Shown piece by piece: positions 33,169 through 39,548 of a DNA stretch of 53,590 nucleotides. The position numbers and the translations under genes are program-made. The DNA is from a bacterium (GTDB lineage Bacteria; BMS3Abin14): NCBI GenBank assembly GCA_029210545.1, contig JARGFV010000002.1:1-53590 (forward strand). The letters are read 5' to 3'. Numbering within the stretch: the stretch's first letter is position 1; every line of letters begins with the position of its first letter. The notes under the pieces are model-generated. The model was not told the DNA's origin, did no database searches, and saw only the letters and a list, made by a program, of their open reading frames with translations.

Positions 33169-34614
33169 ATGGCCAGATACAAGATTCTGGTCGTCGACGA
33201 CGACCAGTTTTCCCGCACATTCTGCCGACAGATCCTGGAAGAGGGCGATGACCTTTCTGTGGTCGAGGCTAACCAGGTCGATGAGGCGCTTCGGATCATT
33301 GCCGAAGGCGGCATCGATCTCGTCATTTCCGACCTCGTCATGCCTGAAAAGACCGGGCTCGACCTGGTTGAGATACTCCGTCTCGAGGCGCCCAGCCTCA
33401 AGGTGATCCTGATCACAGGGCACGGTACGGTTGAAAGCGCCGTCAAGGCCATGAAGCTGGGTGCCATTGATTATATCCGGAAGCCTCTTAACCCGGCGGA
33501 ATTCATGATCGTTGTCCGCAGGGCCCTTGAGCAGATCCGTCTTTCCGAAGAGAACCAGGCGCTCAAGAGCAGCCTCAAGCTTTACGATGTGAGCAGCCGG
33601 ATATCACGGACCATCGAGATCGAGGAACTCTACCAGACGATCTTCGATCTCATGATCCAGGAAACGGGAGCGACCAGAGGTTTCCTTTACGTGGTGGACC
33701 AGGAGCAGGGCGATTCCAACATCATCCTGTCCGAGGGGTTCGATGCTGACGACAACGAGGACCTTGACCGGAAGCTGTTCGAAGAGTACCAGATGGAACT
33801 CACCGATATCACGACCCCGTTTGTCCCCGGCAGCCCTCCGCTGGTCAAGATAAATTGCCGTTCCGTCTCGGATAGCATCCAGTCGGTCATGTTCGTTCCC
33901 CTCAGGAACAAGTCCGACATGGTAGGGATGGTGGTATTTTTTGACACCGAGCGGCTGGCGGTTTTCGGTGATGAGGAGATGAGGGTAGCGACTTTTCTCT
34001 GTGAACAGGCTAACGCCGCCCTGGAAAATGCCCTGCTTTACTCCCAGGCCAAGATCCTCACCATCACCGACGACCTCACCAACGTCTACAACTACCGTTA
34101 CCTCAACAATATCCTTGACCGGGAACTGGTGCGGGCTCAGCGGCTGAACTCATCCATGTCCGTCCTGTTCCTGGATCTCGATTCGTTCAAAAAGGTCAAC
34201 GATCACCACGGGCACCTTCTGGGCAGCAAGATCCTCATCGAGCTGGCCGGCCTGCTCAAGGGAGCCGTCCGAAAGGTGGACGCCGTGGCCCGGTATGGTG
34301 GCGACGAATACATTGTCGTCCTTACTGATACCAACTCCAAAGGCGCCATGATCGTGGCCGAGAGGATCCGGCAGATGGTGGAGGAGCACACCTTCACCGT
34401 GAGCGAGGGGTATCCCGTGAAGCTCACAATTTCCATCGGTGTAGCCTCCTATCCCGAACACGGGGTCAGCAAGGTGGAGCTGCTGCACCTTGCCGATGAA
34501 GCCATGTACCGCGGCAAGTACGGAAGGAAGAACATCGTTTACGTGGCGACGCCGGACGAAAAGACCCTGACTGGTCCGATCAGCCCGCCCGAGTCCATCC
34601 CAGATAGTCAATAA
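33169..34614 (+). CDS. REC-GAF-GGDEF dinucleotide cyclase with Hypr signature (GacA-like, putative 3',3'-cGAMP synthase)
   Basis: REC (VVDDD, ISDLVMP, RKP), GAF-like middle, DLDSFKKVNDHHGHLLGS (Ser353 where diguanylate cyclases have Asp), I-site RKVD, RYGGDEY; between comEC and hisS. Confidence 0.85.
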   Translation: MARYKILVVDDDQFSRTFCRQILEEGDDLSVVEANQVDEALRIIAEGGIDLVISDLVMPEKTGLDLVEILRLEAPSLKVILITGHGTVESAVKAMKLGAIDYIRKPLNPAEFMIVVRRALEQIRLSEENQALKSSLKLYDVSSRISRTIEIEELYQTIFDLMIQETGATRGFLYVVDQEQGDSNIILSEGFDADDNEDLDRKLFEEYQMELTDITTPFVPGSPPLVKINCRSVSDSIQSVMFVPLRNKSDMVGMVVFFDTERLAVFGDEEMRVATFLCEQANAALENALLYSQAKILTITDDLTNVYNYRYLNNILDRELVRAQRLNSSMSVLFLDLDSFKKVNDHHGHLLGSKILIELAGLLKGAVRKVDAVARYGGDEYIVVLTDTNSKGAMIVAERIRQMVEEHTFTVSEGYPVKLTISIGVASYPEHGVSKVELLHLADEAMYRGKYGRKNIVYVATPDEKTLTGPISPPESIPDSQ

Positions 34615-34626
34615 AGGATCACCACC

Positions 34627-35901
34627 ATGAGCTTGCTGATAAGGGGTATCCGGGGGTTCAGGGATATCCCCGCTGAGGAAGCTTTTCGGCATCGCTACGC
34701 AGAGGACCGGACCAGGGAGCATTTCGCCCTTTACGGTTACAGGGAGGTCCGCCTCCCCCTGGTAGAATCCACCGAACTGTTCGCCAGAGGTATCGGTGAG
34801 GCCACCGATATCGTCGAAAAGGAGATGTACACCTTCGAGGATCGGAACGGAGCCAGCCTGACCCTCCGCCCCGAGGGGACCGCTTCGGCCGTGCGAGCCT
34901 ATCTCGAGGGTGGGTGGAAGTCCCAGGGCAGAATCGCCAAGATCTTTTACACAGGGCCCATGTTCCGTTACGAACGTCCCCAGAAGGGCCGGTACAGGCA
35001 GTTCTACCAGGTCGGCCTCGAAGCTGTCGGGGGGGCCGGTCCCATGGTGGACGCCGAGGTCATCGACCTCCTTCACCGGCTTTTCGTGCGGCTCAAAGTG
35101 GACAATGTCAAGATCCTGGTCAACTCCCTTGGCTGTTCCGAATGCCGTCCGGCGTTCAGGGAAAAACTGCTCGCCTTCATCCAGGGAAAGACGGAAGAGC
35201 TTTGCGCCAACTGTGTCCGAAGGACGGGTTCCAACCCTCTCAGGGTGCTGGACTGCAAGGTCCCGTCGTGTCGTGAGGCCCTGACGGGGGCACCGGTGAT
35301 CCTCGACGACCTGTGCGCTGAGTGCGACGATCATTTCAAACGCGTACTCGAGGCGCTGACCGGCCTGGACGTGCCCCACGAGGTGGACCCGGGGATCGTC
35401 AGGGGCCTCGATTACTACAACCGGACAGCTTTCGAGGCCGTGTGTACAGGCCTCGGGGCCCAGAACGCCGTGGCTGCAGGCGGTCGTTACGACGGGCTGG
35501 CCCGGGAGATCGGCGGAGACGTGCCGGGCATCGGTTTTGCCATCGGTCTGGAGAGGCTGACCCTGGTCATGGACTGGGAGGGCCTGGAAGAGGCCGGTCC
35601 CGATTTTTTCGTCGCCTCGGCCACGACAGCCGCAAGGGTCCCGGCCATGGCCCTGGCCGACACTTTGCGAGAGCAGGGGTTCGCGGTCCAGACTGACCTG
35701 GAGGACCGAAGCCTGAAGGCCCAGTTCAGAAGTGCCCACCGCATGGGCGCGGCCCGGGTCCTCATCCTCGGTGACGACGAGTTGGCTGAGGGGTCCGTGC
35801 AGGTCAAGGATTTTGCCACAGGTGAACAGGTAAAGGTGGTACAAGAAAAGTTCGTTGAAGGTCTAAAGGGGCCGCCGCGCCTCTCCGGCAGCATAAAGTA
35901 G
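34627..35901 (+). CDS. hisS: Histidine--tRNA ligase
   Basis: RGFRD, LRPEGTA, FRYERPQKGRYRQFYQ, RGLDYY, AGGRYDGL, GFAIGLERL. Confidence 0.97.
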   Translation: MSLLIRGIRGFRDIPAEEAFRHRYAEDRTREHFALYGYREVRLPLVESTELFARGIGEATDIVEKEMYTFEDRNGASLTLRPEGTASAVRAYLEGGWKSQGRIAKIFYTGPMFRYERPQKGRYRQFYQVGLEAVGGAGPMVDAEVIDLLHRLFVRLKVDNVKILVNSLGCSECRPAFREKLLAFIQGKTEELCANCVRRTGSNPLRVLDCKVPSCREALTGAPVILDDLCAECDDHFKRVLEALTGLDVPHEVDPGIVRGLDYYNRTAFEAVCTGLGAQNAVAAGGRYDGLAREIGGDVPGIGFAIGLERLTLVMDWEGLEEAGPDFFVASATTAARVPAMALADTLREQGFAVQTDLEDRSLKAQFRSAHRMGAARVLILGDDELAEGSVQVKDFATGEQVKVVQEKFVEGLKGPPRLSGSIK

Positions 35902-36015
35902 CGTGAAAATCTCATCCCCGGAATCGCACGGTTTTTCATGTCTTGGCGGTTCCGGGGTTTCCGGCAGCATGGCTTGCTCTCTCCAGGCACTGCCGGAAAG
36001 GGAAGGAGAACGGCG

Positions 36016-37674
36016 ATGATCACATCGGGAAGTCTGAAGAGCATGGATCTGCTCAAGATCCTGAAGAATGCCGTAGCCAAGTCCTTTACCGGGACCATCA
36101 CCCTCAAGGGCAAGACCGGGCTGGCCTCCATCACCCTCAAGGGAGGCGAGGTCGTCTTTATCAGGGAACCGCGGATCAGGAGCAGGCTGGGGCGGTACCT
36201 TGTCAGCCGGAACATCATCACTGAAAAGGAGCTCCAAGGCGCCTTGAACGCGCAGAAAAAGAAAGGGGGCACTTTCCTCGGGGAAGTCCTCATCGAGCAG
36301 GGCGTTATCGACAAGGAGTCGCTGGACCAGGCTATGAAAAACGTGGCCGAAGAGTCTCTGGTGCACCTTTTCACCTGGGAGGAGGGCCTGTTCCGGGTGG
36401 AGGAGGAGGATGTCCCGGGCGACTCCATAGGGGACATCGATTACGAGGCCCTTGCCGGATCGGCCAGGCAGCTGGCTTCCGCCGTGGTGGACGACTGGGC
36501 CATCGACGAGATGATGCCCAAGGAAACCCGGATAAAGGATGACATCCGGGAGGAGATCTTCACGGCCGTCCGCCGCGTCAGCCAGAAACTCCGGGAGCTC
36601 AAGCCCGACGAGGTTGTTCTTCTCGTCGAGGACGAGATGCTCATGCGCGAGATGTTCCGGGACAAGCTCACTACCTTCGGGTTCGAGGTGGACGCGGTGG
36701 AATCTCCCCACAAGGCTCTCGAATTGCTGTCACAGTACGAGGAGGACGGCAAGATACCCATCGTCATCACCGATCTCATTATGCCCACCTTGAGCGGGAA
36801 GGGGATCTTCGGGGGACTCGAGCTTCTCGAGGAGATCCAGAAGACACACGGGCACATCCCGGTCATCGTCAACACGGCCTACCCGGACCCCTCGATCCGC
36901 AGACGGGCCCTCTTTCTGGGAGCCACCTACTATATCAACAAGCCGGAACGCAAGGATATCGCCCCTGACCAGCTGGAAAACCAGCTCAACCTTTTCATCG
37001 AGGAGGTCGCCCTCTGTATCCAGAACGTGATCCAGCGCCACGAGGTCTACTTCGAACGCGATCATCAGAACATCCTGAGAGAGGAACTCCTTTCCCAGCT
37101 CATCCAGTCCCGTGAGGAGCTGCAGAAGGTGGGAGAGGTCGTCCAGAGGGACTCGGGGGACATCAAGTTCCTGTCGGAGACGAGCGCAAAGATGGTGCGG
37201 GACAAGAGCCTGGGTAAAATGGCGGAGGTCATTGTGAACTTCGCTGCTGCCGAGATGGACCGTTGCGCGATCCTGCTCGTCCGCAAGGACGACGTCACAG
37301 GGTTCTACGGCTCAGACCGGCGCCCGAGGGGGGAGGGGTTCGGCGGGGCGATCAAGGGGCTGGCCATGAGCGTGTCCGATTCCCCCCTGCTCAGGCAGGC
37401 CGTGGAAGGGAAGAAGGTTGTCACCATGGAAAACCCCGGCGATCAGCTGGGAGCTGTCCTGAAGGGTGTCCTGGGTGACCCGCCCCCCCATCACACGGTG
37501 GTTCTTCCCATCATGGTGCAGAACATGGCCGTTGCCCTGCTCTATGGTGACGTGGTCCCCGGCGGGCCGCCGCCCAGGGAGATCGAGTCCCTCGAGATCC
37601 TGATGAACCTGGCCTCCCTTTCCCTCGAGATCCAGCAGCAGCAGGTCATGATCAAGAGGTTGAAAGGGAGTTAG
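36016..37674 (+). CDS. DUF4388 / MshEN-like / REC / GAF-like signalling protein
   Basis: DUF4388-type ITSGSLKSMDLLKIL...FTGTITL; RLGRYLVSRNIITEKELQGALNAQ and FLGEVLIEQGVI; REC (LVEDE, TDLIMP, NKP); GAF-like VLPIMVQNMAVALLYGD. ATG 36016 with AAGGAG. Confidence 0.72.
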   Translation: MITSGSLKSMDLLKILKNAVAKSFTGTITLKGKTGLASITLKGGEVVFIREPRIRSRLGRYLVSRNIITEKELQGALNAQKKKGGTFLGEVLIEQGVIDKESLDQAMKNVAEESLVHLFTWEEGLFRVEEEDVPGDSIGDIDYEALAGSARQLASAVVDDWAIDEMMPKETRIKDDIREEIFTAVRRVSQKLRELKPDEVVLLVEDEMLMREMFRDKLTTFGFEVDAVESPHKALELLSQYEEDGKIPIVITDLIMPTLSGKGIFGGLELLEEIQKTHGHIPVIVNTAYPDPSIRRRALFLGATYYINKPERKDIAPDQLENQLNLFIEEVALCIQNVIQRHEVYFERDHQNILREELLSQLIQSREELQKVGEVVQRDSGDIKFLSETSAKMVRDKSLGKMAEVIVNFAAAEMDRCAILLVRKDDVTGFYGSDRRPRGEGFGGAIKGLAMSVSDSPLLRQAVEGKKVVTMENPGDQLGAVLKGVLGDPPPHHTVVLPIMVQNMAVALLYGDVVPGGPPPREIESLEILMNLASLSLEIQQQQVMIKRLKGS

Positions 37675-37730
37675 TTAACAGTGAAACGTGTATGGCTTAT
37701 TCCCAATCACGAATCACGAGTCACGGCTAA
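37671..37730. repeat. Heptamer arms (GTTAGTTAACAGTGAAACGTG / AATCACG AATCACG AGTCACG)
   Basis: Starts at the stop codon and ends before the aspS RBS. Confidence 0.6.
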
Positions 37731-37745
37731 TTAAGGAGAACCACC

Positions 37746-39548
37746 TTGGAAAAGAGATCAAGCAAACTGGACCTGCTCGGAGACTGGCAACGCACTCATC
37801 ACTGCAGTCAACTCACCGAGGCAGACGTCGGTGAGAAGGTTCTCCTCATGGGCTGGATCCTGAGGCGCCGTGACCATGGAGGTCTCATCTTCGTCGATCT
37901 CAGGGACAGGTGGGGGATCACCCAGGTCGTGTTCAACCCGGAGAACGAACCGGTTTCCCACAAAAAGGCCGAGGCCCTCCGGTCCGAATGGGTCATCGCT
38001 GTCAGGGGAAAGGTGATCGCGCGTCCCGAAGGGATGCAGAACCCGGATCTCACCACGGGCGCAATCGAAGTCATGGCCAGTGAACTGAGGATCCTCAACA
38101 CCAGCGCGACCCCTCCTTTTGCCATTGATGAACGGGAAGGTACCGATATCGCCGAAAACCTCCGGCTCACGTACCGCTACCTGGACCTCCGGAGGGAGAG
38201 CCTGAAGAAGAACATGGTCTTAAGGTCCCTGGTGAGCAAGCGGGTCCGGGATTTCTTCTACAACGAAGAGTTCCTGGAGATCGAAACGCCGTTTCTGACC
38301 AAAAGCACCCCGGAGGGGGCCCGTGACTACCTTGTTCCCAGCCGCATCCAGCACGGGCACATGTATGCCCTTCCCCAGTCCCCCCAACTGTTCAAGCAGC
38401 TGCTCATGGTGTCCGGCTATGACCGCTACTTCCAGATCGTCCACTGTTTCAGGGACGAGGACCTCAGGGCAGACCGCCAGCCGGAGTTCACCCAGATAGA
38501 CGTGGAGATGTCGTTTATCACCGAAGACGTCCTGTTCGACGTTATGGAACGAATGATCACCGACCTGTTCAGCTTTGCCCTGGACACCCGGATCCAGTCG
38601 TCTTTCCCAAGGTTGTCCTATTCGGAGGCCCTGGACCGGTTCGGTCTGGACCGGCCCGACACCCGGTTCGCCATGGAACTCGTTGACCTGAGCGGACCGC
38701 TGAGCCGGACAGAGGCCAGACTTTTTTCAGAGACGGTGGCCGGCGGCGGGATCGTCAAGGCCATCAACGTTAAAGAAGGTGCGCGGCTGTCACGGAAAGA
38801 GCTGGACGAACTTGCCGATCACGTTGCCATTTACGGCGCAAAGGGTCTTGCGTGGTTCAAGAACAACCCCGACGGCTGGCAGTCGCCCCTGGCCAAGTTC
38901 ATCGGTGAGGATGTCCGCGGCCAGATCGCGCAGGCCGCCGGGTTTGAAACCGGCGATCTGCTCCTGGTCGTTGCCGGTGACTCCGCCATGGTCAACGAGT
39001 CCCTCGGACAGCTCAGGCTCCATGTTGCCCAGAAACTGGACCTCATCCCCGCGGGGCGGTTCGACTTCCTCTGGGTGGTTGATTTCCCCCTTTTCGAATA
39101 CGATGCCAGGGACGGACGCTACTATTCCATGCACCACCCCTTCACCTCCCCGGTGGAGGACGATATCCCCCTGCTTGGGACCGATCCCGGGAAGGTGAGG
39201 GCACGGGCCTACGACATGGTCCTCAACGGTTCGGAGATCGGCGGCGGAAGCATCAGGATCCACCGTCAGGATATCCAGAGCGCCGTCTTCCAGCTTCTCA
39301 ACATCGGTCCCGAGGAGGCAAGGGAGAAGTTCGGATTTCTCCTCGACGCCCTCCAGTATGGCGCCCCGCCCCACGGCGGCATCGCCTTCGGACTGGACAG
39401 GATCATGATGCTCCTTACTGGCGCAACCTCCATCAGGGACGTGATCCCCTTCCCCAAAACCCAGAAGGCAACCTGCCTGCTCACCGGCGCGCCGAGCGCG
39501 GTGGACCCCGCACAGCTGGCGGAGCTGGGGTTGCGGCTGAAGAAATAG
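37746..39548 (+). CDS. aspS: Aspartate--tRNA ligase, probably non-discriminating (Asp/Asn)
   Basis: [15 protein letters not shown] (His) and RPEG (Gly) are typical of non-discriminating AspRS; [44 protein letters not shown] start after AAGGAG. Confidence 0.95.

Follow-up and report, generated by a model that had tools for sequence, protein, structure and literature searches.

We analysed a 53,590-nt stretch of DNA (the window; positions 1 to 53,590 of contig JARGFV010000002.1, assembly GCA_029210545.1, a bacterium of the lineage BMS3Abin14), in which the gene at 36016..37674 on the + strand encodes a 552-aa response regulator with PATAN(alpha-clip)-REC-GAF architecture. The four-helix insert of its PATAN domain is the known "alpha-clip" of PATAN domains and is homologous to MshEN_N, the cyclic di-GMP (c-di-GMP)-binding module of Vibrio cholerae MshE. 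The protein is a diverged member of a catalogued, widespread PATAN family and not a new protein type. Judged from its residues and a structural model, the alpha-clip probably binds a cyclic dinucleotide, most likely c-di-GMP. The fuller reading towards which we lean, with some reserve, is that of a PatA-type regulator (PATAN-REC) extended by a GAF domain, in which ligand binding would be integrated with phosphorylation and output would pass through contacts of the PATAN domain.

The insert carries two tandem MshEN-type motifs, identified by translation, NCBIfam, phmmer and orthologue alignment. Motif I, RLGRYLVSRNIITEKELQGALNAQ, comprises residues 57-80 (36184..36255, +) and motif II, FLGEVLIEQGVIDKESLDQAMKNV, residues 87-110 (36274..36345, +); they are joined by the basic spacer KKKGGT (residues 81-86, 36256..36273, +), similar in length to that of Geobacter PilB. 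An earlier note on this DNA had quoted both motifs at these positions and had reported Asn66 for the turn Gly of motif I, with the Arg and the final Gln missing from motif II; the translation agrees on every point (Phe87 for Arg, Val110 for Gln). Two further deviations were absent from that note, namely Met107 for Leu and a spacer of six residues versus the usual five. Measured against the published motif, RLGxx(L/V/I)(L/V/I)xxG(L/V/I)(L/V/I)xxxxLxxxLxxQ (Wang et al. 2016), motif I departs at the turn Gly alone and is otherwise canonical, and motif II departs at Phe87, Met107 and Val110, with L88, G89, L103 and the turn Gly96 retained. Arg at position 1 and Gln at position 24 are present in motif I (R57, Q80) and replaced in motif II. 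The Leu cluster at positions 2, 17 and 21 is present (L58, L73, L77, L88, L103 and M107, the last a conservative change); the five-residue spacer and a Gly at both position-10 turns are not, given the six-residue spacer and Asn66.

To judge from profile and sequence scores, the resemblance to MshEN is far above chance. The NCBIfam model NF053729 (c-di-GMP_motif; "cyclic di-GMP-binding domain, MshE-related") matched residues 57-108 over model positions 1-51 of 53 with 49.3 bits (E 3e-13; cut-off 38), and the same alpha-clip scored 54 bits in a six-frame scan of the genome. The Pfam MshEN model PF05157 gave no match to the 552-aa protein at E <= 1. A phmmer search of the PDB returned the N-termini of Thermus PilF, V. 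cholerae MshE and Geobacter PilB (E 1e-9 to 4e-5). A full-length AlphaFold2 (AF2) model was poor (predicted local distance difference test, pLDDT, 68; predicted template modelling score, pTM, 0.34), with the REC C-terminus and the linker below 50 and Foldseek matches to GAF and REC only, and the N-terminal region was therefore modelled separately. The model of residues 1-155 (pLDDT 90, pTM 0.82) is a beta-rich domain broken by helices 58-64, 70-83, 88-94 and 100-118. Its top Foldseek match in the PDB was 5HTL (5htl_B; MshE with c-di-GMP), over 53 columns with a root-mean-square deviation of 0.9 Å and 40% identity, followed by PilF GSPII-B structures with bound c-di-GMP; no solved PDB structure matched the PATAN beta part.

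Makarova et al. (2006) were the source for the alpha-clip insertion of PATAN domains. With residues 1-140 as the query, 1.84 billion representative proteins yielded 3960 matches at E <= 1e-3, and 140 domains among the best 150 of these, which cover residues 3-136 entirely and have an insert of equal length, were aligned. The first half of the insert consensus reads R-L-G-x-x-L-V-x-x-G-x-I-x4-L-x2-A-L-x2-Q and is followed by the spacer; the second half reads R-L-G-E-I-L-V-E-x-G-x-I-x4-L-x3-L-x2-Q/K. The consensus of these diverse PATAN inserts is the MshEN motif itself, and the deviating states of the protein studied here are rare in the set (Asn66 in 10/141, Val110 in 4/141, Phe87 in <6/141). 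The Myxococcus xanthus PATAN proteins MXAN_3211 and MXAN_1145 already stand among the MshEN_N units in the supplementary alignment of Wang et al. (2016). On both counts, the combination of PATAN and MshEN_N is known and widespread. Such a consensus raises the question of whether PATAN proteins that regulate pilus motility and cell polarity sense second messengers directly.

Conservation was examined in 84 family members, 78 orthologues at >=57% identity and six distant homologues at 36-41%. R57, L58, G59, L73, L77 and Q80 of motif I were kept in 77-78 of the 78 orthologues, and the residues of half-site I (R57, L73, L77, L88 and Q80; the site also includes the G59/R60 backbone) in 75-78. The position-3 glycines G59 and G89 are invariant in all 84 members. 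A basic lead-in, R53-x-K/R55-S-R57, and K81-K83 are conserved in 78/78 orthologues. Position 87 is Phe in 65, Tyr in 6, Ile in 3, Pro in 3 and His in 1, so that an aromatic residue (Phe/Tyr/His) occurs in 72/78; M107 occurs in 75/78 and V110 in 78/78. Half-site II is thus fixed in a derived state across the small phylum while half-site I is canonical. The six distant homologues have the canonical Gly at position 10, a Gln at the end of motif II, and His or Pro at position 87.

In the MshE complex, the RLG Gly and the residue after it read guanine O6 and N7 through their backbone amides, Arg stacks on the base, Gln contacts ribose and phosphate, and the position-10 Gly makes the helix turn only (Wang et al. 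2016). Changes at Arg9, Asp12 or Gln32 of MshE had less than a five-fold effect on affinity, and G11L and G40I abolished binding. Adenine is likewise excluded by a backbone amide and not by the side chains that differ in the protein studied here, and VcMshEN binds cyclic GMP-AMP (cGAMP) weakly, 660-fold below c-di-GMP. Because the base is read by backbone amides, the residues altered in the 36016..37674 protein (the turn Gly, the stacking Arg and the ribose/phosphate Gln) do not discriminate G from A.

The earlier note had taken these substitutions as a sign of shifted specificity, possibly for cGAMP, and this part of its proposal is not supported: the c-di-GMP binder Bd2402 of Bdellovibrio has Phe at motif position 1 and also Asn at a position 10, and the motif is a standard PATAN alpha-clip. 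Bd2402 binds c-di-GMP with a sub-micromolar dissociation constant (Kd 0.04-0.4 µM); its motif I opens with Phe-Leu-Gly and has Lys for the final Gln, and Asn stands at position 10 of its motif II. Asn66 was also rejected as a specificity marker in its own right, being a helix-turn residue without ligand contact that is found as well in Bd2402 and in Geobacter PilB (5zfr, 5tsg), which has Asn at turn position 10 and a longer spacer. Aeromonas CheA binds at 2.6 µM despite a Met at motif I position 1, and Ile at Leu-cluster positions of PilF cost just 2.4-fold in affinity. D. geothermalis PilB_3, in which the Gly is lost, does not bind, and XpsE, which is without at least one RLG Gly, is among the MshEN homologues that have lost binding. 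The more general suggestion of a candidate cyclic dinucleotide receptor remains credible, with a profile score above the curated cut-off, both base-reading glycines retained and a conserved basic lead-in.

The 552-codon open reading frame (ORF) is free of stops and is preceded by a Shine-Dalgarno sequence, AGGAG (36004..36008, +), 7 nt 5' of the ATG at 36016. A longer ORF from the ATG at 35938 was rejected: the Met of 36016 is the start in all full-length homologues and has the AGGAG upstream of it. The DUF4388-REC-GAF architecture given by the earlier note is upheld by Pfam, with 70 bits for DUF4388/PATAN (PF14332; cut-off 25) in two stretches on either side of the helical insert, and 62.8 bits for REC; for the GAF part, GAF_2 reached 27.5 bits, slightly below its cut-off of 28.6, and the Foldseek matches of the C-terminal domain were GAF structures (3eea, TMt 0.75; also 5w10 and 3ci6). 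The N-terminal part of the PATAN domain (residues 1-56, 36016..36183, +; Pfam DUF4388 residues 4-81 and the N-terminal AF2 model) consists of a strand, a helix and three strands, and its C-terminal part (36346..36420, +; second DUF4388 stretch and AF2 model) holds the end of helix 4, a conserved Trp121 and strand 125-130. In the REC domain (residues 198-315, 36607..36960, +), E205, D206, D253, T287 and K309 are invariant among the homologues aligned, and Asp253, encoded at 36772-36774, is the candidate phospho-acceptor. By sequence, this PATAN-REC arrangement with an intact acidic pocket, Asp, Thr and Lys would place the protein among the PatA-type response regulators. A long helical linker of low model confidence in the full-length AF2 model (residues 316-396, 36961..37203, +) leads to the C-terminal GAF-fold domain (residues 397-552, 37204..37671, +), and no output domain, enzymatic or DNA-binding, is present. 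Directly after Asp253, the beta3-alpha3 loop of REC is lengthened by a Gly-rich insertion of ~6 residues (residues 258-267, TLSGKGIFGG, 36787-36816), of which P257, T258, G261, G263, G266 and G267 are invariant down to 36%-identical homologues.

The gene order around the regulator is comEC - REC-GAF-GGDEF - hisS - PATAN gene - aspS. The earlier note had placed the regulator one gene from a Hypr cyclase, and hisS alone (34627..35901, +; ORF, with tRNA-synt_His Pfam matches in syntenic loci) does separate the two. The cyclase (33169..34614, +; Pfam and motif extraction) has a Ser in GHLLGS at the Asp344-equivalent position, GGDEY and an RKVD I-site. The Hypr (GacA-type) rule asks for Ser in place of the guanine-specifying Asp together with GGDEF, not GGEEF (PMC6456294); the neighbouring enzyme fits it and is a predicted cGAMP maker. 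FKKVNDHHGHLLGS and GGDEY are present in the window cyclase and in all 13 distinct syntenic loci. The order Ser-type GGDEF - hisS - PATAN gene - aspS (37746..39548, +; ORF and syntenic loci) was found in 13/13 distinct orthologous loci that extend far enough upstream (L002, identical to L012, and L004-L015). Within the run from cyclase through hisS to the PATAN gene the gaps are 12 and 114 nt, and no + strand terminator-like sites were found between cyclase and aspS; together with gene overlaps in one syntenic locus (L004), this suggests that the PATAN gene is probably co-transcribed with that of the Ser-type GGDEF enzyme. In L004 (3409-9533), overlaps of 8 and 4 nt between genes of the GGDEF-hisS-PATAN-aspS block suggest that signalling and housekeeping genes are translationally coupled. 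Two signalling genes thus alternate with two aminoacyl-tRNA synthetase genes over 33169-39548, and the block is conserved across the whole phylum. That phylum comprises 16 species genomes of one family, 14 of which have a single orthologue, including 10/10 genomes that are >=90% complete.

In a second phylum, three genomes with the 36-41% identical homologues each have a full-length, 39% identical cyclase orthologue with Ser and GGDE[FY], which does not adjoin the PATAN homologue. In a 151-genome sample of this phylum, both families occurred in 8 genomes, the PATAN family only in 4, the cyclase only in 21 and neither in 118 (odds ratio 11.2, p 2e-4, by statistics that ignore phylogeny). The counts rest on full-length orthologues, a criterion that undercounts other Ser-type GGDEFs in genomes without the PATAN family. 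Three of the four genomes with the PATAN family only have another Ser-type GGDEF; in the fourth, G141, which has two members of the family, none of the GGDEFs examined was of the Ser type. Co-occurrence with Hypr enzymes, which the earlier note had proposed as a check, was therefore seen both in the 13/13 syntenic loci and in the second phylum. Since the second-phylum family members carry Arg, His or Pro at motif II position 1, the closer ones keeping the terminal Gln, the Phe/Val state is not what tracks the Hypr enzymes.

The second-phylum REC-GAF-GGDEF family (loci L071-L100) mostly has Ser at the base-specifying position, but also Thr, Gly or Asn, and always GGDE[FY], never GGEEF; this variation offers a natural series for studying GGDEF substrate choice. 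A single in-frame TAA interrupts the Hypr-type REC-GAF-GGDEF orthologue at G116:C101:4095-5492, G149:C10:657-2051 and G081:C66:26094-27488 (L077-L079), which may be split genes or pseudogenes.

The host genome as a whole (G000) encodes about 8 Asp-type GGDEFs and one Ser-type, and both ligands are plausible for that reason. No GEMM-I/c-di-GMP-I riboswitch (RF01051) was found in it at E <= 1, this being the one riboswitch class searched. Five NF053729 matches exceed the cut-off, including PilB and a second PATAN protein, and the 36016-37674 protein ranks third; six PATAN proteins are encoded in all. A pilB-pilT-pilC-pilS-pilR cluster (G000:C174:2933-10466), whose PilB has a canonical MshEN motif, indicates that the organism very probably makes type IVa pili; its PilS (histidine kinase) and PilR (NtrC-type regulator) were assigned by position and sequence, not by domain search. 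The second PATAN protein (G000:C200:3936-5315, -) has a near-canonical alpha-clip (RVGDILVKSGLI...Q / KLGVILTEKNYL...Q) and a C-terminal transmembrane segment, and is a good canonical comparator for alpha-clip binding. A 625-aa PATAN protein (G000:C122:9277-11151, +) has a degenerate alpha-clip without RLG, a REC-like middle and a similar GAF-like C-terminus (BLAST E 1.5e-7 to the GAF region of the 36016-37674 protein). A 372-aa MshEN protein (G000:C28:4349-5464, -) has canonical motifs and a C-terminal region that is GAF-like by eye, with neither a BLAST match to the GAF region nor a GAF Pfam match. A further MshEN-motif match (G000:C202:14140-14295, -) lies in a 595-aa frame broken by one TGA and one TAG, which may be a decayed secretion/pilus ATPase gene or an assembly error.

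In the reading that we somewhat favour, the alpha-clip would bind one cyclic dinucleotide, most likely c-di-GMP, perhaps with reduced affinity because half-site II is without its Arg and Gln. Phosphorylation of Asp253 would be integrated with this input, as might a ligand of the GAF domain or a dimer contact through it; output would go through PATAN contacts with the pilus motor or a polarity module, as in the Synechocystis PATAN-REC proteins. The regulator could also act as a local readout of the product of the Ser-type GGDEF, because the genes are probably co-transcribed. Several points weigh against all this. Neither motif fits the relaxed pattern of Wang et al. (motif I departs at position 10, motif II at positions 1 and 24), and the alpha-clip is embedded within another domain. 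Thermus PilF GSPII-A is a non-binder, in which similar changes and domain context can abolish binding (Neissner et al. 2025), and the 36016-37674 protein is missing the same motif II Arg and one of the same Gln residues. The output partners are proposed by analogy only. The perfect adjacency to the cyclase is essentially one evolutionary observation; as the whole block, housekeeping genes included, is conserved in a single family-level lineage, it is weak evidence of functional coupling.

The earlier note had allowed for a motif that does not bind, and a possible, if doubtful, alternative is that the alpha-clip binds no nucleotide and serves as a structural or protein-interaction element, for example as a mimic of the PilB N-terminus that contacts the pilus base, with regulation left to phosphorylation and the GAF domain. 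GSPII-A gives it a precedent: Ser stands for the motif II position-1 Arg, neither motif ends in Gln, and restoring the consensus failed in the intact domain, binding being rescued only after the position-1 Arg of motif II and the terminal Gln of each motif had been put back and the extra helical turn and subdomain contacts removed. The loss of binding in XpsE and other MshEN homologues and the position of both motifs outside the relaxed pattern fit it as well, Han et al. propose contacts of the alpha-clip with the pilus motor, and the invariant Val110 and Met107 could be mere packing residues. However, XpsE and D. geothermalis PilB_3 lost at least one RLG Gly, whereas the 36016-37674 protein kept both; the critical Gly pair and the whole of half-site I are invariant, and a purely structural bundle would have no use for the conserved basic patch; the profile score exceeds a curated cut-off; and Bd2402 binds tightly despite comparable deviations.

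We consider it unlikely that the receptor prefers 3',3'-cGAMP, or takes cGAMP and c-di-GMP equally, with guanine in half-site I and adenine in half-site II, as an effector of the adjacent Hypr GGDEF. Geobacter, Myxococcus and Bdellovibrio produce 3',3'-cGAMP with such enzymes, for which riboswitches are the only known effectors; GEMM-I is the class that includes known cGAMP sensors, and as none was found in the genome the effector would have to be a protein. The literature searched yielded no protein receptor for cGAMP of Hypr origin. The asymmetric site, with its derived half fixed (V110 in 78/78, Phe/Tyr/His at 87 in 72/78), the block shared with a Ser and GGDE[FY] enzyme in 13/13 distinct loci, the second-phylum co-occurrence of full-length orthologues (8/4/21/118) and the weak binding of cGAMP by MshEN itself all speak for such a receptor. 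Set against them, the backbone amide by which MshEN excludes adenine is not among the side chains changed here, the affinity of VcMshEN for cGAMP is 660-fold below that for c-di-GMP, and Bd2402 binds c-di-GMP with comparable substitutions. In the second phylum, motif II of the Hypr-associated relatives starts with Arg, His or Pro and, in the closer ones, still ends in Gln; G141 combines two family members with no Ser-type GGDEF among those examined; and Hypr enzymes also make c-di-GMP, in a genome with ~8 ordinary cyclases. The substitutions thus lend the idea no support, and it is kept alive by the Hypr linkage, the co-occurrence and the absence of GEMM-I. Its boldest form, in which this PATAN(alpha-clip)-REC-GAF family would be the missing protein receptor for Hypr cGAMP, with half-sites for guanine and adenine, and would couple cGAMP to control of type IV pili or polarity in bacteria without a cGAMP riboswitch, is a long shot; if true, it would fill the effector gap of the Hypr enzymes. 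If the alpha-clip binds only c-di-GMP or nothing, the protein is an ordinary member of a catalogued family.

Among known systems, the closest to the insert is the 53-residue MshEN_N of V. cholerae MshE (5HTL). Both consist of tandem 24-residue helix-turn-helix motifs in a compact four-helix bundle, and the insert keeps the RLG Gly of each motif, the Leu clusters and, in motif I, the Arg and Gln; its conserved basic lead-in resembles the Lys5/Arg7/Lys8/Arg9 patch of MshE. It differs in lying within a PATAN domain, whereas MshEN_N precedes an ATPase, and in having no MshEN_C (T2SSE_N1). The MshEN_N-only receptor Bd2402 (REC-MshEN_N-UNK) also combines the module with a receiver and has the Phe-Leu-Gly and Asn-at-turn variants. 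T. thermophilus PilF GSPII-A is similar in its near-canonical motif I and in a motif II without position-1 Arg and terminal Gln, but has features of its own: the Gly of motif II has become Ala and the Gln of motif I His, an additional, N-capped turn of helix is present, and GSPII-A packs tightly against its C-terminal subdomain. In the 36016-37674 protein both glycines and Gln80 are retained, and helix 1 is broken in the model as it is in MshE with bound ligand. MXAN_3211 and MXAN_1145 of M. xanthus have a PATAN-embedded MshEN_N, and motif II of MXAN_3211 starts Phe-Leu-Gly; they are uncharacterised, differ in downstream architecture and are not orthologues.

In overall architecture the protein most resembles the PatA-type PATAN-REC regulators (Anabaena PatA; Synechocystis PixG, PixE, LsiR and Slr1594; Makarova et al. 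2006; Han et al. 2021/2022), in which an N-terminal PATAN domain with the alpha-clip in the same position is followed by a receiver and neither enzymatic nor DNA-binding output is present; the Synechocystis proteins bind PilB1 and PilC (Han et al.). Compared with these, the 36016-37674 protein adds a helical linker of ~80 residues, a C-terminal GAF-fold domain and the Gly-rich REC beta3-alpha3 insertion, and it is encoded, in a small uncultured phylum, with a Ser-type GGDEF and two aminoacyl-tRNA synthetase genes and not with a chemotaxis-like system.

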